Part shown: in pieces, positions 44,784-59,494 of the stretch
Numbering within the stretch: the stretch's first letter is position 1
Layout of the letters: every line of letters begins with the position of its first letter
Assembly: GCA_963772455.1 (NCBI GenBank)
Contig: CAVYXJ010000013.1
Span: 83,163 to 147,162 of the forward strand
Direction of reading: 5' to 3'
DNA: 64,000 nt
Source: Candidatus Bathyarchaeota archaeon
Lineage (GTDB): Archaea; Thermoproteota; Bathyarchaeia; Bathyarchaeales; Bathycorpusculaceae
Program-made: the position numbers and the translations under genes
Notes under the pieces: generated by a model
Seen by the model: only the letters and a program-made list of their open reading frames with translations
The model's database searches: none
What the model was told of the DNA's origin: nothing

Positions 44784-45578
44784 GTGAATGTTATGCGCCA
44801 AGTTGACATGACTAGGCTTGACTTATCCACGGGAAAAGCAGAAAAAACAACTGATTACGTGGCTGAAGAGGTTCCCCTACAAATCACCATAAACTCAGCC
44901 TATGCTTTTGTCATTTGGTGTTCTCCCTCACAATTCAAAGAACTCGCAGTCGGCTACTTGCTATCTGAGGATATTCTTAGTTCTGTTGATGAAATCCAAG
45001 AGTTAATCTCTAACGAAGCAAAGAATAGTTGCCAAATTACGATAAAGGCATGTGTGGATTTGGATGAACGAATGAAAAATATGCGGCAAAGTACACGCAT
45101 AATTCCCCTTATAAAAGCAAGCACATCACCCTATCAACATGACCAGAAAATTCCCACGGTAAAATCCAAACTCACAATTAAAGCACAAACCATACTTGAC
45201 GCAATCGACCAAATCAACAACTTAGCAAAGGGATTCAAAGAAACAGGTGGACTACACGACTCAGCCATCTTCCAAGCAGACGGCAAAATGGTGGCTTTCT
45301 CAGAAGATGTCGGCAGACATAACACTGTTGACAAAGTCATAGGTGCGGCTTCGCTATCAAAAGCTGATTTTAACCAAAGCTTCATGATAATCACAGGGCG
45401 AGTACCGGGCGATATGATTTATAAAGCTGCAAAAGTTGGTTTACCCATAGTTGCTTCAGTAGCAGCGGTTCTCAACTCAGGAATTTCTTCGGCCAAAAAA
45501 GCCAATATCACTTTGATTGGATTTGTACGTGGAAAACGAATGAATATTTACACTTGCGCAGAAAGGATTACTTGGTAG
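44784..45578 (+). CDS. fdhD: Formate dehydrogenase accessory sulfurtransferase
   Basis: VAEEVPL, TGGLHDSA, EDVGRHNTVDK, TGRVPGDM. Confidence 0.9.
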   Translation: MNVMRQVDMTRLDLSTGKAEKTTDYVAEEVPLQITINSAYAFVIWCSPSQFKELAVGYLLSEDILSSVDEIQELISNEAKNSCQITIKACVDLDERMKNMRQSTRIIPLIKASTSPYQHDQKIPTVKSKLTIKAQTILDAIDQINNLAKGFKETGGLHDSAIFQADGKMVAFSEDVGRHNTVDKVIGAASLSKADFNQSFMIITGRVPGDMIYKAAKVGLPIVASVAAVLNSGISSAKKANITLIGFVRGKRMNIYTCAERITW

Positions 45579-46856
45579 GTGCCTGCAGTGAATAGACCTG
45601 ACATTAAAAGATTGCCAAAACGCTCAAACCCAATGGATGCACAAAAGCAACTTCTTGACGCCGTCCACTCAAACTTAAATCCGAGCGAAATGGTGCAGTT
45701 GCAGAAAGCTTTAGGCAGAGTTTTAGCTCAAGATGCTATTTCAACTGTTAACATTCCTAACTACGACAAAACTTTCATTGACGGCTACGCAATCAACTCG
45801 CAAGATACTAAGGCAGCCTCAACTACAAAACCTGCAGCCTTCAAAGTTGTCGGAAAATTATTTCCAGCAGATTACCCAACCGCATTTGAAGCTGCTCATG
45901 GTGAAGCAGTTTATGTTGCATGTGGAGCTCCAATACCCAAAGGTGCGGATTCAACAGTAAAAGTTGAGGAAACAAGGTTAAACGGCGACAAAATCGAAGT
46001 TATTCGCGAAATCACTTCAGGCGAAGGCATAATACCGCTTGGAGACGACATGAAAAAAGGCGATTTAATTCTCAAGAAGGGGCAGGTCCTAAGACCGCAG
46101 GATATTGGGGTATTAGCTTCACTGGGGATGATCATTGCTGAAGTTGCTAAAAAGCCAAAAATCGCCATTATTTCGGGCGGAGACGAACTGATCAAGCAAG
46201 CCAGCAAAGACCCAGCCAAAATCGCCAATAATTATGCCCTTGTTGTTGCTGGTTTGGCTTCCGAATTAGGGGCTGAAGCGGAAATGGTTGGGATAATGGC
46301 CGATGATTTTGAAAAAGTTACTGCAAAAATCGCTGAAGAGATTGCGGATTCAGATATCGTGGTTACAATAGGCGGGACATCAGTTGGGGTGAAAGATTTT
46401 GTTCCTGATGCTGTCAATGCGCTTGGCGATCCTGGAGTGGTTGTTCAAGGTGTTTCGTTAAGGCCAGGTGCAGTTTCAGGCTTCGGAATAGTCTGTGGCA
46501 AGCCGGTGATTATGTTGCCCGGGCATATTGGTTCTTGTATAGCTGGGTTCTACCTTTTTGTCGCGCCCTTAATTAGCCACTACCTCGGGGATAACGGCGA
46601 TGGTGTGCTTCCAAAACTGAGCGCTGAGTTAGCTGAAGATCTGGAGACTGGTCCACAATTTCGATTCCAACTCACCCACCTAAAACAGTTTGAGGGCAAA
46701 CTGTTAGCTGAACAAGTTGAAGGCGGATCAAGCGCATTAACAACTATCGTCAAATCAAACGGTTATACTATAGTGCCGCCGCATACGAGACTCGCGAAAG
46801 GGAGTCGCGTAGAAGTTTACTTATTTGGCAAACTGGAACTTACTCAAATCATTTAA
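45579..46856 (+). CDS. moeA: Molybdopterin molybdenumtransferase
   Basis: ALGRVLAQD, IDGYAI, GGTSVG..DFV, LRPG, LPGH. Confidence 0.88.
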   Translation: MPAVNRPDIKRLPKRSNPMDAQKQLLDAVHSNLNPSEMVQLQKALGRVLAQDAISTVNIPNYDKTFIDGYAINSQDTKAASTTKPAAFKVVGKLFPADYPTAFEAAHGEAVYVACGAPIPKGADSTVKVEETRLNGDKIEVIREITSGEGIIPLGDDMKKGDLILKKGQVLRPQDIGVLASLGMIIAEVAKKPKIAIISGGDELIKQASKDPAKIANNYALVVAGLASELGAEAEMVGIMADDFEKVTAKIAEEIADSDIVVTIGGTSVGVKDFVPDAVNALGDPGVVVQGVSLRPGAVSGFGIVCGKPVIMLPGHIGSCIAGFYLFVAPLISHYLGDNGDGVLPKLSAELAEDLETGPQFRFQLTHLKQFEGKLLAEQVEGGSSALTTIVKSNGYTIVPPHTRLAKGSRVEVYLFGKLELTQII

Positions 46857-47942
46857 GAAACCTTGGGTGGATACCTGTGAACGTGACCGTCTTTTCCCAT
46901 AACCCACGATTCACACCATGCCTTATCAGCGAATGCACGTTCAGCCAGAAGCAGACAACGGTTGCTTTCGAAAATTTTTGACTCGACACGGTAGTTATTT
47001 GCAGCTCGTAGATAAGCTTCTTTTCCTGCAAAATCTAACGTCGCAGCCAGTTCCGATTCCGTTTGTTTTTGTGATAGAGTAAACAAAGCTTCTCCTTGGT
47101 TTTCTTCAGCTACCCCGCTCCAAAAAAACGAATCACAAGCTTCCAAGTCGCTGGCACATTTAGCAAAGGTTTTTTGCGCTTCCAAAAGGTTGTTTTCTTG
47201 GAGCAATTTGGCTCCTTTTCTGAGAAGCTGCAAATCAGAAACCGAAAATACGCCCATGTTTAGGTGTACATTTTCTTTTACTGGTCCATATGAACGGCGG
47301 GTTTGCAGACGAGTTAGGTCTTCTTTTGAGTTTATGTTAATGAAGCTCTTTAGTTCCGGGTCGAGTGCTTTTATTTCGTTTACTGGAGAAATCAGCAAGG
47401 TTTTGCTGGCTCCTCGTGGAATATCATCTGAGCGAGGCCGTTTCAGTTGGCATAGTGTATCCGTGATTTCTAAACTACTTTGGCGTTCCAAGAACCATTA
47501 TAAGGGTTTCAAGTCTGCCGTTAGGCCACATTGGAACAACCACATCAGACTCTTCCGCTTCATTAAACATATATTCAGCAACTTTGGGCTGCAAAAAAGG
47601 CATATCGCAAGGCAAAGTTAAGCAATAATCCGCTTGAACAGCTCTTAAACCTGACATGATTGCCACGTTTGGGCCACTTATGTGGCTAATTTTTTCGTCA
47701 ATAACAATCCTGACGTTTTTAATGGCATATTGTTCTAAAGTTTTAGTATATTTCGCTTTTCGTTCCTCATCGTTTACACACACAACGATTTCATCGACAA
47801 TGTCCTTGACGTTTTCCATAGCGTGGATTAAAAGAGGTTTACCGTTGAGTTCAGCTAGGGCTTTATCTCGCCAGATTGCATCTATTGTTTGGAATCTGCG
47901 AGCTTTTCCCCCTGCCAAAATGAGTGCAGCCCGTTTAGCCAT
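46853..47942 (-). CDS. mobA: Molybdenum cofactor guanylyltransferase with C-terminal extension; +1 frameshift at ~47490
   Basis: ILAGGKARRF..DKAL, PCDMPF; FININSKEDL in the next frame. Confidence 0.8.
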
Positions 47943-47951
47943 CACGTTTCC

Positions 47952-48611
47952 TCAGTTAACGGTTTTTGTGCTTGCTTTACCTAATTGTTCTTTTATAAGC
48001 GTGATTAGTTTTTGGCCCTCTTCAGGAATCTTGATTATCGGTATATTTCCATAAGATGTATTGGTTGCGTTTGTGGCTGCAATACCTGTAATCGCAATGA
48101 TTGGCTCAACTGTTCCCTGCAACGTTTCTTCGAGTCCTTCTCTGTTTTTCGCTGTAATAATTTTGGGCACATCAACTCTTTTAGCTATTAAGCTGTGGAA
48201 GCCTTCAATGAATACGATATCGAGTTTCTCTTGTTCCAAAAGAGCGATTATTTGGTTTAAATCGTTGAGTGCCATCTCGGTTTTTTTGATGATGTCTATT
48301 TCTTCAGGTGAAATGGCAACAATGACTTTGGAGCCTGCCTTTGCATAACGCCAAGTGTTGGTTCCTTCTTTATCCATCGTGAAGCCTTTGTGGTGGACAT
48401 GCTTTATTGAGCCGATTTGGTAGCCTTCAGCTGACAGATGAGAAATAAGGTACTCTAAAGTAACTGTTTTTCCTGAACCGCTAACGCCAACAGCGGCTAT
48501 AACTAAAACCGTAAAGTCGCACACTCCGCATGGAATCAAGTTGCTTGGCTTTTTATAAATAATGCTCAAGCTGTTTGCTTTCTGCGGTAGTTTTCTTAAA
48601 GATAGCGCCAA
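47952..48611 (-). CDS. mobB: Molybdopterin-guanine dinucleotide biosynthesis protein B (copy 1; true start likely near 48510)
   Basis: VGVSGSGKT, IKHVHH, GTNTWRY..AG, IEGFH. Confidence 0.85.
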   Translation of the reverse strand: MALSLRKLPQKANSLSIIYKKPSNLIPCGVCDFTVLVIAAVGVSGSGKTVTLEYLISHLSAEGYQIGSIKHVHHKGFTMDKEGTNTWRYAKAGSKVIVAISPEEIDIIKKTEMALNDLNQIIALLEQEKLDIVFIEGFHSLIAKRVDVPKIITAKNREGLEETLQGTVEPIIAITGIAATNATNTSYGNIPIIKIPEEGQKLITLIKEQLGKASTKTVN

Positions 48612-48673: not shown

Positions 48674-49184
48674 GTGCCAAAGCTTGTAGCGGTTGTCGGT
48701 GGGAAGCATTCTGGAAAAACCACTGTGATTGAGCATTTGATAGTTGAGCTCAAGCGTCGTGGGTACCGAGTGGGAGCTGTTAAGGAGATGGTTCGGATTC
48801 CAACGTTGGATACGCCAGCAACCGAAACCGACAGGTACAGCATTGCAGGAGCAGAAACGATAGTTGCCGTTCCAAGAGACGAAACTGTGGTTTTCATCAA
48901 AAGAAGATTGAACATAGAAGAAATCGTGCCTTTCCTAGAAGGGTTAGATTATGTTGTTTTAGAAGGCTTTGAGTCAGAAAAAATGCTTCCTAAAATAATC
49001 GCAGCAAAAACCGCTGATGAAGCAAAAAGCTATTATGATCCTCTCTACCATCGCCGTTTCAGGAATAATAACTGAATCAGACATCGAAACCAAAAAAGCG
49101 GCTGCCATAAAAGTTCCAATATTCAATTTGACTGAAACTGAAGCCTTGACTGATTTGATTGAGAAAAAAGCTATTGAAATGTAG
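48674..49184 (+). CDS. mobB: MobB copy 2; +1 frameshift at ~49046
   Basis: GGKHSGKTT, ETDRYSIAGA, VLEGF; corrected C-terminus TIAVSGII..LIEKKAIEM. Confidence 0.8.
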
Positions 49185-49185
49185 C

Positions 49186-49690
49186 TTAACGGACTTCGAT
49201 TGCTACTACGCCTCTGACCCATCTTTGTGCAAATTGATCGCTGCCTATTATGAGTCGCAGTGGTCCTTCACCATCATCTTTTAGCGCTGTCAAGGGTGAG
49301 CCGTTTCTTTGGTAGGCTATGATAGTGTTTTGGTTCATTGCATCTTGGATACTTATGGTCGTTCCGTAGCCGTCTGAAGCTTGAATGTATACGGAGGTGG
49401 CACTTGTCAAGGATGATGGCTTGGGCAAGTAATTCTGGAAGTTGAACGCCGGTGTAATTGTAAACACCGTTGTCTGATGGTCTGCTGCTAGACGACAATG
49501 TAACTTGTACAGTTGTTGATGGTTGTGTTTTGAGTTGGCTAAGTGTCAGTGTTGTTGGGTTGTTTACTTTTCCCTTAATCTGTAAGACATCAGTTTGCGT
49601 TGTTTCTGGACGCGTATAATAATATAGCGGCACTGCTGCGATAATCAAAAAAATAAAGAAGACAAAAACAATTTTTGAGGCTTTCTTCAA
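49186..49690 (-). CDS. Membrane-anchored sulfite-oxidase-fold (molybdopterin-binding-like) protein without Cys; +1 frameshift at ~49409
   Basis: N-terminal TM; LQIKGKV..LTLSQL, YTGVQL, ASDGY, IIAYQRNG, GPLRLI, RWVRGV. Confidence 0.7.
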
Positions 49691-49701
49691 GCAAAAACGC
49701 C

Positions 49702-50628
49702 TTAGGTTACTGTAACTCCTGAAACCCACCTAACCCAATATTGACCCCACTTAAAATCTTCCGTTGGAACAACAAGGCGGTAAGGTTGACCGTTAACAGG
49801 TGTTAGGTAAGCGCCGTTTTCTTGGTATCCAATCAAGATACCAAGGTCTTTGGCTTGCTGGATCGTGTATTCTCGGCTGTAACCGTCAATTGCTAACACA
49901 GTGACTTTGCTGGCGCCTTCTGAGACACCGCTGGCTTGCAGAATACTCCAAAGACTCACACCAGTCCACTCAGAAGTTCTTTGGGGTTCTCCACCTGGAG
50001 CAAGCGCTGCCTGCACAGTTATGGGTTCATAATTTGCTAAGTTGTTGCCTGTTAATACAAGTGGGTTAGAGACTGCCCCTGTAAAGTTGATTGTCCACGG
50101 TTGCAAACGGATTTCACTTACGCTTTTAACATTAAAGTTTGATGCTAACCCTGGAGTTATTAGTTTTAGTGGTCCTTCAGAAATATCAGTTATCCAGTTT
50201 CCATTCTTGGCAAACGCCAAAATTATTTCTTCACCTGAATACTGTGTGCTGTTGTAGGCTTGATAGGTGTTTATTGTTTTGTTGAAGCCATCAGATGCAA
50301 TTACGTTGATAAAGCCTGCATCCCATGAGGCACCGATGTGGTTGAGAAGCTGGAGCATTGTTACTCCGATGTAATTGGCTGTTTCGCCTTTAATTGTGCT
50401 TGTTACGTTTGTCAAGGGCATCTGGGTAAGGTCATCTATAGTCACGGTTTTTTCTGATGCAATGTCACCTGTGATTTTGAGTTGAACCTGCGGTGGATTA
50501 CCACTAGGTAAACCTAAATTGCTTTTTTGAGCTGGACCGCCTGTTAAATAATAAATGGATGCTGTTAATGCAATAATAACTACAGCTAATGTTGAAACCG
50601 CTAAAACGATTTTTCTGGTTTTATTCAA
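49702..50628 (-). CDS. Membrane-anchored protein with two tandem sulfite-oxidase-fold domains, no Cys
   Basis: N-terminal TM; two copies of xTGV.L / A.DG[FY] / NG..GP[LY][KR]L; NxS/T sequons. Confidence 0.75.
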   Translation of the reverse strand: MNKTRKIVLAVSTLAVVIIALTASIYYLTGGPAQKSNLGLPSGNPPQVQLKITGDIASEKTVTIDDLTQMPLTNVTSTIKGETANYIGVTMLQLLNHIGASWDAGFINVIASDGFNKTINTYQAYNSTQYSGEEIILAFAKNGNWITDISEGPLKLITPGLASNFNVKSVSEIRLQPWTINFTGAVSNPLVLTGNNLANYEPITVQAALAPGGEPQRTSEWTGVSLWSILQASGVSEGASKVTVLAIDGYSREYTIQQAKDLGILIGYQENGAYLTPVNGQPYRLVVPTEDFKWGQYWVRWVSGVTVT

Positions 50629-51259
50629 TTTTTTTTCCTCCGAAACCGATTTTTCCTACTCTAAATAGAAGCATGTTAGCGATGAATCCTCCAATGCAAC
50701 CGCTTATTGCTGCAACAACACTCAAAAATGAGAGCACCCCCAAAGGCAAAAACAGAACTAATGCTCCCACTGAAATGGTTCCGACAACATTAGCTATTGC
50801 TGCGGCACCGATGCAACAGGCTGAACAGCAGGCTTTATGCTTTGAAATCAAAAAGAAAGCGTCGATTGCTAAGCCAGGGGCAAGATAGATGACAAATGAG
50901 AGGAGACCGAAGTTGCCGAATGGAAGCAGCAGACTAATGAAGGCTTGTGTTAAGGAGACCATTGAGGCAGCCCCGATTTTACGTACAAGACCAAACGCCA
51001 TTACTGGCCACATCATGTATAATCCTCCGGCTACAGCACCAGTTGGGACGTACAGTGGTCCTGTTATAGCGGCGACGAGTGGGTGGATAACATTTTTTGT
51101 TGCTAAGCCAAGGCTTGCGAAGAGTGCCATTAGGACTAAGTCTGTGGTAGCGATTTTTAGGGTGCCTTTTGCCAAGTTTTGGTGTGGTTGATTCATGCAA
51201 AACTCCGATGTTATCACTTTGTAACATCGATAAAATAAACCTATCGTTAAAAAAAACAA
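50621..51259 (-). CDS. ECF transporter S-component (YkoE/MptD-like)
   Basis: TTDLVLMALFASL (AxxxA-like), ~6 TM, RKIGAASMV, LAPGLAID. Confidence 0.65.
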   Translation of the reverse strand: MFFLTIGLFYRCYKVITSEFCMNQPHQNLAKGTLKIATTDLVLMALFASLGLATKNVIHPLVAAITGPLYVPTGAVAGGLYMMWPVMAFGLVRKIGAASMVSLTQAFISLLLPFGNFGLLSFVIYLAPGLAIDAFFLISKHKACCSACCIGAAAIANVVGTISVGALVLFLPLGVLSFLSVVAAISGCIGGFIANMLLFRVGKIGFGGKKIE

Positions 51260-51270
51260 ACAAAACCAAA

Positions 51271-51600
51271 TTATGAAAGTTCCATTACAACGCCATCAAG
51301 TTTTAACTGAGCGTTCCGGTATCTTTTCACCAAATCTTTGCCAAAATCCGTAACCTCCGAAGAACCACCACCCTTTGCCCCACCGCGAACCCGAGTAACC
51401 AAAGACTCACCTAACCTCTCCTCAGCCAAAGTTAGTCTATGCAAAGCATACCGATAAGACATCTTCAACTCATTAGCAGCCTCTAAAACAGAATGCCGTT
51501 TATCAATTTCTTCGAGCAATTCAGCTAAACCATTTCCAAAAACTGCTTCGCCTTTATCGTTAACCATCCAAAGCTTAATCGCAAAACCTAAAGCGCACAA
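51271..51600 (-). CDS. modE: ModE-type winged-helix regulator (DNA-binding domain only)
   Basis: VFGNGLAELLEEI..SVLEAANELKMSYRYA..RGGAKGGGSSEVT. Confidence 0.8.
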   Translation of the reverse strand: MCALGFAIKLWMVNDKGEAVFGNGLAELLEEIDKRHSVLEAANELKMSYRYALHRLTLAEERLGESLVTRVRGGAKGGGSSEVTDFGKDLVKRYRNAQLKLDGVVMELS

Positions 51601-55360: not shown

Positions 55361-56380
55361 TTATACCTCGATAACCTTCGCGTTACTAAGCACGTTAACG
55401 TTACCATTGCCCTTTGTGATGTAGCCAACTTCGAAATGCCTGACTTTCCGCTTGTCCAATTCGCTCAATAAATCATCGGCGTCCTCTTTGGCTATGGCTA
55501 TTAGCATTCCACCTGCCGTTTCCTTAGCTTCACCTTGCAACAAGGGGTAACCAAAAATTTCAGTTAAAACGGGCGTGCCACGAATTACCGCCAACTGGTC
55601 AATAACGACGTCCACTTTCCCAAGTCCTGCCATATTGGCAGCGTGCCCTTTCAACCCAAAACCAGTCACGTCTGTCGCGGCGTGAACGGGAACTTTCTGC
55701 ATAGCTTCAGCGACCGGTTTGTTTGAGGTAATCATTACTTCAATAGCTTCAGCGACAGCCTCTTCAATTAACACTTCAGAAACTTCTTTTAGTACTTCTC
55801 TGCCCTCTTCTTCCTTACGCAAACGATAAGCAGCCATCGCAGGCGCAATCCCAAGAGGTTTAGTCAAAAACAAACGGTCACCAACCTGAGCCCCTTTTGT
55901 ATAGACAATTTTCTCAATTTCGCTAACAGCAGTTGCCGCCCCTCCAATAATAGGCCAGGGATTCCTGATTGTATGTCCACCAACAACAGGTGCACCCATT
56001 TCGCGGCAGAAATCTCCAAACCCCTTTAGCATTCCTACTGCCAATTCGTCTGGCATGTTTTCGGGAAACGCCATAATAGACAGAACACTGACAATGTTTG
56101 TGACTGCCAAAGCGTAGATGTCACTTGTCACGTTGCTACCTGCGATTCTACCTTGGATTTCAGGTTCGTCAACCATGGGCGTGAAAAAATCAAGCGTATT
56201 TAGTACGGCAAGGTTGTCTGTGATTTTAACGACGCTGGAGTTTTCCCATGGACCAGCCAATACATCTGAATTAAAACTCTCTGTTAAACCTGCGTTATCG
56301 AGCAATCCGCCGAGTTGATACTGTGGAAGTTTGCAACTGCAACCGTGAACTGGAACAACTTTTGTTAATCTGTAAGTCAA
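55361..56380 (-). CDS. selD: Selenophosphate synthetase (SelD/SelD-like), Cys form
   Basis: HGCSCKL, DFFTPMVD, GGHT, LTKPLG, ATDVTGFGL, ETAGGMLI. Confidence 0.88.
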   Translation of the reverse strand: MTYRLTKVVPVHGCSCKLPQYQLGGLLDNAGLTESFNSDVLAGPWENSSVVKITDNLAVLNTLDFFTPMVDEPEIQGRIAGSNVTSDIYALAVTNIVSVLSIMAFPENMPDELAVGMLKGFGDFCREMGAPVVGGHTIRNPWPIIGGAATAVSEIEKIVYTKGAQVGDRLFLTKPLGIAPAMAAYRLRKEEEGREVLKEVSEVLIEEAVAEAIEVMITSNKPVAEAMQKVPVHAATDVTGFGLKGHAANMAGLGKVDVVIDQLAVIRGTPVLTEIFGYPLLQGEAKETAGGMLIAIAKEDADDLLSELDKRKVRHFEVGYITKGNGNVNVLSNAKVIEV

Positions 56381-56479
56381 ATTTCATTTGCTCCAATTGT
56401 CGATATTATTCCAAATAGCACAGGGATTTATAGGTATAAAAATATTCAAACCAAAAAAAATGGAAAAGAAGAGTTTTGG

Positions 56480-57770
56480 TTACTTTCTTTTTTCTTGGAT
56501 TATTTCAAGGAATGCTTCAATTCTGGTTTTTATCTGCTCGGAATCACCCATTGCATAGTCAGTTTCAATCTTTAGCATCGGCAAACTTATCGCCTTTAAT
56601 GCACGGTCTACTTTGACGCCTTCAACGTTGTAGTCGTGGCAGTTCTGCAACGTGTAATAGATTACGCCTTCTGCTTTGAATTGCTTAGCCAGCTCTATTA
56701 CACTTTTTATGCGTGCATCGTTGGGTGTGAAGCATGCACAGGGTATCTGGCTGTATTTTTCAACCATAGCCCAGAGCAAATCGTTTAAGCTGTCACCTTT
56801 CGGTTCAACCAAGTTAGTAAAGTAACGTGTGCCTACGCAACTCTCCTCAACAATCACTGAAGCACCAGCCGCTTGAGCGATGCTGTGGACTTTCCAATTG
56901 GGAATCGCCATAGGGCAGCCAGAAATCATAACTCTTGGCGCATCTTTCGCTGTGACACCTATGCCTTTGTGTACCCGTTCGTCAAGTTCGTCGCAGAGTT
57001 CGTTGACTTTTGTGGTGAAGCGTTTTACGTCGTCGTTGAAGCTGATTTGGAAAATCAGTAACGCATCTAATCCGCTGATGGGCGATGGGTTGTTGGCGCG
57101 CAAGTCGGATAAACGTTTGAGGGCTTTTCGTTTGTTGTTGATTAATTCGATGGATTCTTTTAGTTTTTCGGCGGTTATTTTGTTGCCTGTAACTTCTTCA
57201 AGTTTGGTTTTGAATGCTTCAAGTTCTTTGTACCAGAATTCTTTGCCTTGTCGTGTATCTGGTTTATGAGGAACCTCTAAAACATAGGTTGGAATAAGTT
57301 CGTTTAGTAGTTCGTAAACTTTCTTTTTGCCATCGCAGGTTGTTTCTCCAACCACAAGGTCGCTTGACTGAAAGTAGGGGCAAGTTTTGTTTAGTCTAAA
57401 GCCGTAGAACGATTTTATCAAGGGGCAGAGGTTTCTTGGCAAAATTGCTTCTGCGTCTGGAACTGAGAAGTCTGCTCCACCGCACAACCCAACCATGGTT
57501 GCGTCTGCCGCGTAAGCTAGTCTCTTCTGGCGCGTAAATGCAGAATGCACCAATGACTTTTTTGCCTTTTGCTCTGAGGTCGTTGAGTTCTTTGATTCGT
57601 AACCCGTGGATTTCTGAGACGACAAAGTCGAAGTAACCCATTCCTTTAGGTCGGTTCTTCTGTGTTAGGTATAAGGCTCCGTAGTATTGTCCTAAGATGC
57701 CAAGGAGTTGGTTATGTTTTTCAATATCCATTCCGAGAGATTTCCACATTTCTACATATTTTTCTGCCAT
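56480..57770 (-). CDS. Double-cubane-cluster protein (DCCP, 2-hydroxyacyl-CoA dehydratase superfamily); +1 frameshift at ~57521
   Basis: EIHGLRIKEL, FCIYAPEE, GLCGG, NLCPLIKS, ETTCDGKKK, SGCP, EESCVG, PCACF, QNCH. Confidence 0.8.
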
Positions 57771-57854
57771 AGCAATCACATGCCAATGATGAGCGTATTG
57801 AAAATTCTAATTATTAAAATTATTGATAAATATTATTAGAAATATTGATTGAGG

Positions 57855-58089
57855 CTAGCGTTTTTTAACTAAAACCTTAAACTCAGCGGCAGACTTCGAA
57901 TGCTTCAACCACTTCATGACCATTATTCTTAACCCAACGCTGAATGTTATCAAACTCCAACTCACCCTCACCAACAACCTCCAACAACTGTCCAGCAACC
58001 ATCGTCTCAAGCTTACGCTTCGTAAACACCACTGGCATGGGACACATTTTGCCCTTAACATCCAACTTTTCAATTTCCAAAAACGTCAC
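57855..58089 (-). CDS. tusA: TusA/SirA-family sulfur carrier; +1 frameshift at ~57900
   Basis: LDVKGKMCPMPVV (CPxP), DNIQRWVKNNGH. Confidence 0.85.
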
Positions 58090-58439
58090 TAGAACACTAT
58101 TACTTTGTCACTATTAACTGTCCATTCAACGAGTTCATGAACAGTCGCGATTTTTACCCCGTCGAAGAGGTCGGCTTGATTTAAGCCACGTGCTTCAACG
58201 CAGACCACGCAGGCTTTAACTTCGACACCGCCTTGAATGAGATTTTCAAGATTTTGGCCGTAGTTGATTAAGCCTTGAGCGGGTTTTTGACCTTTTTTTG
58301 CGAGGTAGACACCGTTTTCGAACAGCCAGATTTTTACTTTGTGGCCTTCTATGTCGCAGGTTGCGGCGAATCGTAGAGCTGACATTGCGCGTTCTTTTGC
58401 GTATGGGGCTTCGTTTATTATTATTGTGAAGGTGACCAT
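58089..58439 (-). CDS. DsrE-family sulfur relay protein
   Basis: NEAPY..ALRFA, LFENGVY, ACVVCVEARG, SDKVIVF. Confidence 0.85.
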   Translation of the reverse strand: MVTFTIIINEAPYAKERAMSALRFAATCDIEGHKVKIWLFENGVYLAKKGQKPAQGLINYGQNLENLIQGGVEVKACVVCVEARGLNQADLFDGVKIATVHELVEWTVNSDKVIVF

Positions 58440-58559
58440 ATCATCCAACCTTAATTTTCCTGATAGAGAATTATTAAAAAAACTAATATAAGCATTTTCT
58501 AAAACAAAAAGCAAATATCACAACAACCTCTAAGAAGCTTACACAGAGGCACAAAATTC

Positions 58560-59494
58560 GTGGACACCATAAGGTTCGATTACCTCAACACCTTCCTCAC
58601 AGTTGCCAGAACACGCAGCTTCTCAGTGGCAGCTAAAGAACTTAAAACCAGCCAAGGCACAGTAAGCCACCATGTAGCCGCATTAGAAGAGTATTTTGAC
58701 GCTGAACTCTTCAAACGCACAGCAAATGGCGTAGAAGTTACCGAAGCCGGAGCCACCCTAAAAGAAACCGCGGAAAAAATACTTCAGCAAGCCCAAGATG
58801 CAAAAACCAAAATCTCCATGGCAAAACATAATTTGTCAGGTACTATAAGAATTGCTGCAAGCACCATCCCAGAAGAACATATAATCCCAAGTTTAACCGC
58901 TGAATTCCAAAAAAAATATCCAGACGTAAAATTCAGGATAAAAGCAGAAGATAGCCTAAACAGCCTAAGAAGCCTACAAGCTAACGACGCTGATTTTGCG
59001 GCTGTGGGTACAATTTGGGGTTTTGAAGAAAAATTCAGTTATCTCCAGATTGGTGAAGAGCAATTGGTTCTCATTGTGCCTTGTAACCACCAGTTAGCCA
59101 AACATAAAATTGTCAATCTAAACACGATCTTAACTTTCCCATTCGTAAGTCGTGAAGAAACTTCTGGAACAAGACTGGAAATCGAGCAGTTTACTGGAAC
59201 AAAACAATCTCCATTCCCAGCAGTTGCGGGTGACGTTGGAGCTTGGAAGCACAGAATCAGTAATAACAGCTGTTTCAGAAGGCAGAGGCATAAGCATAAT
59301 CTCCTCAATCGCCGCAACAAAAGCCCAAGCAGCAGGTTTGGCTGAAAATAGTTGCAATTGAAGAAGCAAAAAACTGTCGAAAACTCTACATCGTCAGACC
59401 AAAAAAGTCTCTTCTAAAGACATCTGAGGCTTTCTGGGAATTCTGCAAAAAATACAAATTCAAAAACGAAGCAATTACCTGCTCTTCAACTTAA
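58560..59494 (+). CDS. LysR-family regulator; +1 frameshifts at ~59191 and ~59340
   Basis: SFSVAAKEL..SQGTVSHHV..LEEYF..LFKR; AASTIP; REETSGTR; GSTESV..AVSEG. Confidence 0.85.

Follow-up and report, generated by a model that had tools for sequence, protein, structure and literature searches.

A candidate ECF-type uptake system for a pterin or tungsten/molybdenum cofactor, with cysteine-less sulfite-oxidase-fold surface proteins, in a Bathyarchaeia genome

Organization of the operon

We analyzed a 64,000-nucleotide stretch of DNA (hereafter, the window) from a Candidatus Bathyarchaeota archaeon (GenBank assembly GCA_963772455.1, contig CAVYXJ010000013.1, positions 83,163 to 147,162). The source is a 2.45-Mb Bathyarchaeia metagenome-assembled genome (MAG), 92% complete, in which the window lies on the contig designated C13. 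The subject is an operon at positions 49186–51600 of the window, which encodes a ModE-type regulator, an S-component of an energy-coupling factor (ECF) transporter and two cysteine-less proteins of the sulfite oxidase (SUOX) fold. We suggest that this locus is the archaeal form of an ECF-type uptake system not previously described, and that the system is very likely a transporter belonging to tungsten/molybdenum (W/Mo) cofactor homeostasis. The following features were found.

51271..51600, minus strand: ModE-type winged-helix regulator gene, N-terminal domain only (109 aa; TIGR00637 and PF00126 matches below cut-off)
51206..51229, no strand: operator-like palindrome, CGATGTTA-N8-TAACATCG, 10 nt before the S-component ATG
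50621..51196, minus strand: S-component of ECF type, YkoE-related subfamily (191 aa, six predicted helices; PF09819)
49702..50628, minus strand: two-domain cysteine-less sulfite-oxidase-fold protein, membrane-anchored and predicted to face outward (308 aa; PF00174)
49186..49689, minus strand: dom1, one-domain cysteine-less sulfite-oxidase-fold gene (PF00174; ~168 aa in relatives; +1 insertion near 49406)

As originally predicted from the DNA letters, the four genes form a co-oriented operon, all on the minus strand from 51600 to 49186. The junctions are tight, and the S-component and two-domain genes overlap by 8 nt. The S-component likely starts at the ATG at 51196, which gives 191 aa, as in its relatives.

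The original prediction also described a one-domain protein. A PF00174 gene is indeed present at about 49689–49186, but its reading frame is not intact, a +1 insertion having been overlooked. The gene is split over two frames (49729–49274 and 49467–49186), each part being a PF00174 fragment, and aligning the DNA with that of its two closest relatives (loci L042 and L043) places one extra base near 49406, where the window has GACAAGTGCC and the relatives have GACAG-CGC and GGCAA-CGC. Relative to the same two loci, the nearby mobB and mobA genes carry one single-base insertion each, so that three frameshifts fall inside 2.6 kb; the flanking genes are intact. These +1 frameshifts are probably long-read assembly errors, because the sister assembly L042 is broken in different genes (five fragments of selD and three of fdhD). 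Another PF00174 gene of the same genome (C9:118898–119492) is split into two adjacent frames, which is a further frameshift.

The S-component and its EcfAA'T module

The S-component matched PF09819 at 50.2 bits, against a curated cut-off of 25.2. Searched as a single sequence, it had no match in the PDB at E<=1; the profile of its family retrieved only YkoE (5edl, E 8.5e-6, 28 bits). An AlphaFold2 (AF2) model has six helices, with low confidence (mean pLDDT 65). Residues 120–128 form an H-K-A-C-C-x-x-C-C motif. The pattern H-x-x-C-C-x-x-C-C is invariant in 44 archaeal S-components, and CCxxC(C) was found in 41 of 45 bacterial homologues; CCxxCC is missing from YkoE. By the positive-inside rule, the motif would face the cytoplasm, where helix 5 begins.

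The EcfAA'T genes that an ECF importer calls for were located on contig C10 of the same genome, as a single module with one CbiQ/EcfT and two ABC ATPase genes. The S-component is solitary in this archaeon and must share this one EcfAA'T in the manner of group II systems.

The sulfite-oxidase-fold surface proteins

The two-domain protein matched PF00174 at 112 bits over two stretches. Both PF00174 proteins had been described as cysteine-free and N-terminally anchored, with several sequons in the larger one, and these claims were borne out. Each protein has one N-terminal hydrophobic helix after Lys/Arg residues; the two-domain protein has 5 N-x-S/T sites and no Cys, against ~4 expected (1.3% Cys usage in the window). 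Cysteine is also lacking in 42/54 two-domain and 32/36 one-domain family members, and no conserved Cys column was found in 90 family members and 92 bacterial domains. The column of the SorA Mo-ligand Cys aligns to Ser in dom1 and is mostly Ser across the family. A twin-arginine motif, the signal by which extracytoplasmic members of the catalytic family leave the cell folded and loaded with cofactor, was sought in the N-termini of the 90 family members and found in none (0/90), all of them having a plain signal-anchor helix. Judging by their sequences, the surface domains are not catalytic SUOX enzymes, because the defining Mo-ligand Cys is missing.

The AF2 model of the two-domain protein (pLDDT 88.6) was matched by Foldseek to the molybdenum cofactor (Moco) domains of SorA, YedY, sulfite oxidase and nitrate reductase (2blf, 1xdq and 1sox, probability 1.00), and to PruR with a TMt of 0.81 (7kom) and 0.71–0.75 (7kos, 7rkb). 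The dom1 profile matched 7kos at E 2.4e-5. PruR is an exported, cysteine-less, non-catalytic protein of the SUOX fold that contacts its pterin through Asn102, Tyr104 and Trp160 (PMC13259868). In the profile alignment, N83 and Y85 of the 7kos chain (PruR Asn102 and Tyr104 in A. tumefaciens numbering) are the counterparts of D107 and Y109 in dom1. The D-G-Y triplet is invariant in 92/92 bacterial domains and in archaeal dom1 (D107-G-Y109), and G82, P144 and W158 vary little or not at all in the archaeal and bacterial domains. The profile alignment stopped short of PruR Trp160; W158 of dom1 is itself invariant. Residues aligned to PruR pterin contacts are thus kept in the surface domains, which plausibly bind pterin.

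The PruR proteins of Agrobacterium, Vibrio and Klebsiella (7kos, 7kom, 7rkb) share with the proteins studied here an exported minimal SUOX fold of ~140 aa, the lack of a Mo-ligand cysteine, a non-catalytic character and the Asn/Asp-x-Tyr pterin contacts, aligned with the invariant D-G-Y. They have Trp at the Cys position, whereas a Ser-rich column is seen here; moreover, the present proteins are anchored by a transmembrane (TM) helix, and one has two domains in tandem. The partner of PruR is DcpA or a sensor-kinase gene and the context is signaling, whereas the partner here is a transporter component. No GGDEF, EAL or kinase partner (a PruR-style DcpA/DTB sensor with a WX7E periplasmic domain) was found in the operon, and the S-component is the partner in all loci. 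The regulatory context here suggests pterins of the molybdopterin (MPT) type, not of the monapterin type.

About nine further TM-anchored PF00174 proteins of the same genome keep the Mo-ligand Cys, e.g., in a YedY-like CVEGWS motif. Their genes include C15:11999–12670, C5:43025–43696, C2:1739–2710, C12:202262–203338, C11:64340–65179 and C21:29512–30342. These proteins have plain TM helices and no twin-arginine signal.

Conservation in archaea and bacteria

Of 401 Bathyarchaeia genomes searched, 20 have a close S-component orthologue; within the genus of the source organism, the share is 12 of 40. The S-component is, therefore, an accessory trait. The linkage proposed in the original prediction is conserved in a survey of gene neighborhoods (20/20 archaeal genomes, 37/45 bacterial loci, plus gene fusions). 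In all 20 Bathyarchaeia carriers, dom1 adjoins the S-component gene on its downstream side, and it is intact in the 19 genomes other than the present one. About half of the archaeal loci have the two-domain gene between the two.

Screening 1.84 billion representatives gave 205 S-component relatives, and related loci were gathered using a 10-sequence alignment. The same arrangement was seen in 37 further archaeal-type loci (species representatives), most with MobB and often with mobA-moeA-fdhD; most archaeal clusters have MobB or MobB-FeS encoded beside them. In the archaeal locus L073, EcfA-EcfA'-EcfT directly follow dom1.

The bacterial set comprised 45 loci from Clostridia, Peptococcaceae, Thermoleophilia and others (38–48% identity), in which the system forms a dedicated operon. 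Its components occurred as follows.

S-component: 40 of 45 loci
dom1-like gene: 37 of 45 loci
EcfA, usually two genes (A and A'): 34 of 45 loci
EcfT: 29 of 45 loci
MobB with an Fe-S domain, following EcfT: 27 of 45 loci
500-aa surface phosphodiesterase: 22 of 45 loci
APH/RIO-type small kinase, cytoplasmic: 18 of 45 loci
larger PF00174 proteins: 17 of 45 loci
FMN_bind proteins: 10 of 45 loci

Natural fusions join the S-component, a TM helix and a PF00174 domain in one protein (P0363, P0365, P0373 and P0429). In others (P0374, P0387 and P0390), the S-component is fused to an alkaline-phosphatase-type phosphodiesterase, and in three loci (L105 8387–10243, L079 and L084) EcfT is fused to a purple-acid-phosphatase domain. 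The adjacent or fused phosphodiesterases, the fused purple acid phosphatase and the kinase fit an organic phosphorylated substrate. It is worth mentioning that the same transporter has recruited two unrelated phosphoesterase families.

Several Clostridia loci contain a second importer. In five to six of them (L086, L092, L096, L108 and L109 among them), an FecCD/Peripla_BP_2 type II ABC importer and a TiaS_TCKD-like gene are encoded in one gene string with the ECF operon, ~2–5 kb upstream of the S-component. Genes for DUF364/DUF4213 ('heavy-metal chelation') are close by in eight loci.

Probable regulation by a ModE-type protein or a riboswitch

The 109-aa regulator matched TIGR00637 (ModE_repress) at 55 bits against a cut-off of 98.5 and PF00126 at 25.3 against 26.6, both below threshold. 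No Mop/TOBE molybdate-binding domain was found in this protein, which ends after the winged helix-turn-helix (wHTH) domain. The gene had been named modE and read as a Mo/W sensor: the protein would correspond to the ModE-type DNA-binding half alone, but the sensor label is not justified since the sensing domain is missing. Most archaeal loci have an orthologue of this ModE-type gene upstream of the S-component.

The palindrome before the S-component gene is the sole perfect copy in the 2.45-Mb genome, and the regulator is, therefore, local. The motif CGATRTTA-N8-TAAYATCG was found within 140 nt upstream of the S-component in 31/37 archaeal loci and in 0/43 bacterial loci. Its arms are conserved and its spacer is variable, as expected of a protein that binds DNA as a dimer. 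A copy of this box also lies before modA in L050, L051 and L076; in L050 the gene order is ModE-type gene, modA, modB, modC, S-component, dom1. The palindrome is probably the operator of the ModE-type wHTH regulator, through which expression would be set, and in relatives Mo/W uptake genes appear to belong to the regulon. A hairpin or terminator in the RNA is less likely, given that the arm sequence is conserved rather than covarying and that the box recurs before modA. A sigma-70 promoter scan was uninformative for an archaeal host.

The ModE box of M. acetivorans, RTTATGT-N8-RCATAAY, has been validated experimentally, and an archaeal ModE without an in vitro response to molybdate has been reported (PMC12327845). 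The present system has in common with the ModE systems of E. coli and M. acetivorans a probably homologous wHTH domain, a palindromic operator with 7–8-bp arms and an 8-bp spacer, and a box before modABC (here in relatives). It differs in the absence of a Mop domain and in the arm sequence (CGATRTTA).

The box is also found before some extra PF00174-like and metallophosphoesterase genes in relatives. The loci L050 (7387–10203), L005 (7243–9916) and L074 contain an added ~520–530-aa protein with weak PF00174/GEGP similarity, together with a metallophosphoesterase, and extra palindromic boxes flank this pair.

In bacteria, the Moco RNA motif (RF01055) was found upstream of the operon and on its strand in 11 of 25 loci scanned. 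These loci yielded twelve aptamers, including a tandem pair upstream of one operon (L085 2922–3202). The P3 hairpin is missing in 12/12. Moco RNA variants without P3 have been linked to the metabolism of the tungsten cofactor (Tuco) (Regulski et al. 2008, PMC2408646), and by this feature the twelve aptamers would belong to the Tuco class. A thiamine pyrophosphate (TPP) riboswitch was sought in the 25 bacterial loci and in the window, and none matched; nor did any other vitamin riboswitch match before the S-component in these 25 loci, and no riboswitch was found in the window. One flavin mononucleotide (FMN) riboswitch, in L098, lies before a different S-component gene, of the riboflavin type, which is located downstream of the operon, and L117 has one T-box on the opposite strand.

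Cofactor biosynthesis genes in the carriers

The source genome encodes a TupABC-like tungstate transporter, PstSC, MoaA, MoaC, MoaE and MoeA. The idea of the system as a substitute for absent Mo/W uptake or Moco synthesis in this organism was, thus, rejected: TupABC-like, MoaA/C/E and MoeA proteins are present.

Biosynthesis genes are lacking in many other carriers, which are mostly MAGs (the bacterial ones without completeness figures) and, where related, are non-independent samples. MoaC is missing in 14 of 44 bacterial carriers; 13 of these 14 are without MoaA and 11 without MoeA. Nine of the 14 still encode 1–8 tungsten-type aldehyde ferredoxin oxidoreductases (AORs). Among the archaeal carriers scored for MoaC, 9/19 are without it, including a one-contig genome (97% complete) and two genomes that are 99% complete.

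The bacterial genome G402, a single 1.90-Mb contig, is without MoaA, MoaC, MoaE and MoeA, and a search for ModA, TupA and WtpA in it found none. It keeps an AOR, a PF00384 protein, XdhC and a MocA-like transferase, and a 984-aa xanthine-dehydrogenase-family enzyme is encoded divergently from its ECF operon (L098 731–5930). Two apparent matches were rejected: the PF00994 match is CinA, not MoaB/MogA, and the periplasmic-binding-protein match is PstS inside a pstSCAB operon, not TupA/ModA. The ECF operon of G402 (L098) begins with a MobB-methyltransferase fusion.

Cells in which MPT synthesis and MoeA are missing could not be served by imported metal alone. Consequently, the gaps in biosynthesis favor uptake of the cofactor or of a late pterin precursor over uptake of an oxyanion.

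Proposed uptake pathway

The original prediction was that non-catalytic extracellular pterin-binding proteins feed an ECF importer for cofactor salvage. The gene linkage, the regulation, the PruR-like residues, the EcfAA'T modules and the apparent losses of biosynthesis genes all support this. We consider it probable that the substrate is a pterin or W/Mo cofactor, i.e., preformed W/Mo-MPT or a precursor such as MPT or cyclic pyranopterin monophosphate (cPMP).

The following route may be proposed. The anchored cysteine-less proteins, with Sec-type export (dom1 always, the two-domain protein often), would capture the pterin cofactor outside the cell in a non-catalytic, PruR-like manner and pass it to the YkoE-related S-component. 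Import would be powered by the single shared EcfAA'T of the genome (contig C10). The cytoplasmic CCxxCC may hold a thiophilic W/Mo-dithiolene center until MobB, MobA or MoeA-type factors take over. The ModE-type wHTH protein, acting on the palindrome, probably sets expression. Since this organism has its own de novo Moco genes and TupABC, the system here would be auxiliary, a salvage route. The archaeal variant is characterized by a solitary S-component, a shared EcfAA'T, a ModE-type box instead of a riboswitch and a tandem two-domain binder.

A broader reading, which we put forward tentatively, is that prokaryotes of anoxic habitats trade finished W/Mo-pterin cofactor through a dedicated ECF importer of intact W/Mo-MPT, with capture proteins outside and a CCxxCC hand-over inside. 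If so, whole lineages of bacteria and archaea could retain numerous tungsten enzymes despite the loss of MPT synthesis, of metal insertion and of oxyanion uptake, and archaea would use a Mop-less ModE-type repressor where bacteria use a Tuco riboswitch.

Several points weigh against cofactor uptake as proposed. Free Moco and MPT are very labile, which makes their environmental supply uncertain. The core partner gene dom1 is frameshifted in this window, and with MoaA, MoaC, MoaE, MoeA and TupABC encoded in the source genome, salvage is not required there; gene absences in the other carriers can be artefacts of MAGs. The truncated pocket of PruR has been reported to be too small for Moco, and the present domains, which do not exceed PruR in size, may therefore bind a smaller pterin. 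The Cys4 motif would also suit thiophilic metal species. The FMN-binding and polyferredoxin proteins in the bacterial operons hint at extracellular redox chemistry, for which the proposed route does not account.

Alternative explanations

The best-surviving alternative is an importer of metal rather than pterin, in which tungstate or molybdate, or the thio-forms dominant in sulfidic sediments, would be captured as oxyanion by the surface domains and as metal by CCxxCC. CbiMNQO and NikMNQO offer the analogy, as metal importers of the ECF type that have accessory components at the surface (NikK, NikL). They share with the present system an ECF importer with unusual extra extracytoplasmic or membrane capture proteins, but their S-components are of the CbiM/NikM family, their substrates are cations and no sulfite-oxidase-fold partner is known for them. 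A ModE-type box and, in relatives, a Moco/Tuco riboswitch as controlling elements fit metal uptake equally, the Cys4 motif is thiophilic, and DUF364/DUF4213 and FecCD-type genes occur in some bacterial loci. The S-component/dom1 pair stands directly behind modABC in L050, L051 and L076, yet sharing an operon with modABC argues for a different substrate. In 11 of the 14 MoaC-less carriers there is no MoeA, and in 13 no MoaA, so imported metal could not be placed on a pterin. Moreover, the sole characterized PF09819 protein has an organic heterocycle as its ligand, nothing but pterins is known to bind to the surface fold, and phosphodiesterase and kinase partners would be senseless for an oxyanion. 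We, therefore, regard metal import as unlikely.

It is more doubtful still that the system is not a transporter for cofactor supply at all, with the surface domains acting as pterin/redox sensors or extracellular enzymes and the S-like protein as an anchor or signal partner, in analogy to PruR-DcpA or MsrPQ. PruR, the closest structural analogue of that size, is a signaling protein, the bacterial operons include FMN_bind and NapH-like polyferredoxin genes, and the genome contains the TM-anchored, Cys-keeping PF00174 proteins described above. Nevertheless, dedicated EcfAA'T genes stand in the same operons (29–34 bacterial loci and L073), the membrane protein scores above the PF09819 cut-off and its profile matches YkoE, and no signaling output domain is linked. 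The riboswitch or ModE-box control and the pattern of auxotrophy indicate supply.

An ordinary thiamine/hydroxymethylpyrimidine (HMP) S-component of the YkoE type beside unrelated exported proteins, as the PF09819 match and the JGI name 'thiamin/hydroxymethylpyrimidine transport' on homologues would have it, is hardly credible given the absence of a PDB relative at E<=1 by single sequence, the mere 28 bits to YkoE by profile, the lack of CCxxCC in YkoE, the 20/20 adjacency, the gene fusions, and the finding of Moco/Tuco but no TPP riboswitches in the 25 scanned loci.

Relation to YkoEDC and to known routes of cofactor acquisition

Among the nearest described systems to the proposed cofactor importer is YkoEDC, the group I thiamine/HMP ECF transporter of Bacillus subtilis, with YkoE (5edl) as its S-component. 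The two share PF09819, a length of ~190 aa, a small-xxx-small motif in helix 1 and reliance on EcfAA'T, six helices are likewise predicted for the present protein, and the bacterial relatives described here form dedicated riboswitch-controlled operons. The similarity is, however, distant and detectable at the profile level only, and the HxxCCxxCC motif, invariant here, is missing from YkoE. In addition, the present system has obligatory extracytoplasmic partners, sometimes fused, and its control lies with a ModE-type box or a Moco/Tuco riboswitch rather than with TPP. By these features the S-component appears not to be of a plain known-vitamin type, in agreement with the original prediction.

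In the textbook view, Moco and the tungsten cofactor (Wco) are too unstable for exchange and are made by every cell that uses them. To our knowledge, only nematodes take up Moco. The transport route had been put forward as undescribed, and a full-text literature search gave no paper that connects ECF transporters with Moco, with Wco or with the Moco riboswitch and no description of prokaryotic Moco uptake, only the dietary route of C. elegans. This animal takes up dietary Moco, the bioavailable form reported being protein-bound (PMC7849362, PMC9793310). Common to both cases is the acquisition of preformed Moco from outside instead of its synthesis; the C. elegans case is eukaryotic, and the transporter there is not known.

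If the proposal is true, a dedicated prokaryotic importer would mean a new substrate class for ECF transporters and would account for genomes in which as many as eight tungsten enzymes are encoded although the cofactor pathway is missing. Moco/Wco would then be a traded 'vitamin' in anoxic communities, which is relevant to the poorly culturable Bathyarchaeia, and the system could offer a handle for delivering cofactor to deficient cells. The archaeal variant, with its sensor-less wHTH protein and unique operator, is a simple test case of Mo/W regulation.

Neighboring genes in the window

The molybdenum-related neighbors named in the original prediction (fwdDBAC, fdhD, moeA, mobA and mobB) were recovered through NCBIfam/Pfam matches, mobB being present as two genes. 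Those closest to the operon are listed below.

48674..49184, plus strand: mobB, convergent with the operon (TIGR00176, 84 bits; +1 insertion near 49045)
47952–48611, minus strand: second mobB
46853–47945, minus strand: mobA fusion (~365 aa in relatives; +1 insertion near 47487)
45579–46856, plus strand: moeA
44784–45578, plus strand: fdhD

The fdhD/moeA/mobA/mobB block recurs at L042–L045, L054–L056, L064 and L067.

On the other side of the operon, a SelD-DsrE-TusA-HGD-D cluster occupies 55361–59494 of the window. A LysR regulator with a PBP_like domain belongs to it. This cluster adjoins the ModE/S-component operon in many Bathyarchaeia loci (L002–L005, L042–L058), so that the linkage between the two is itself conserved.

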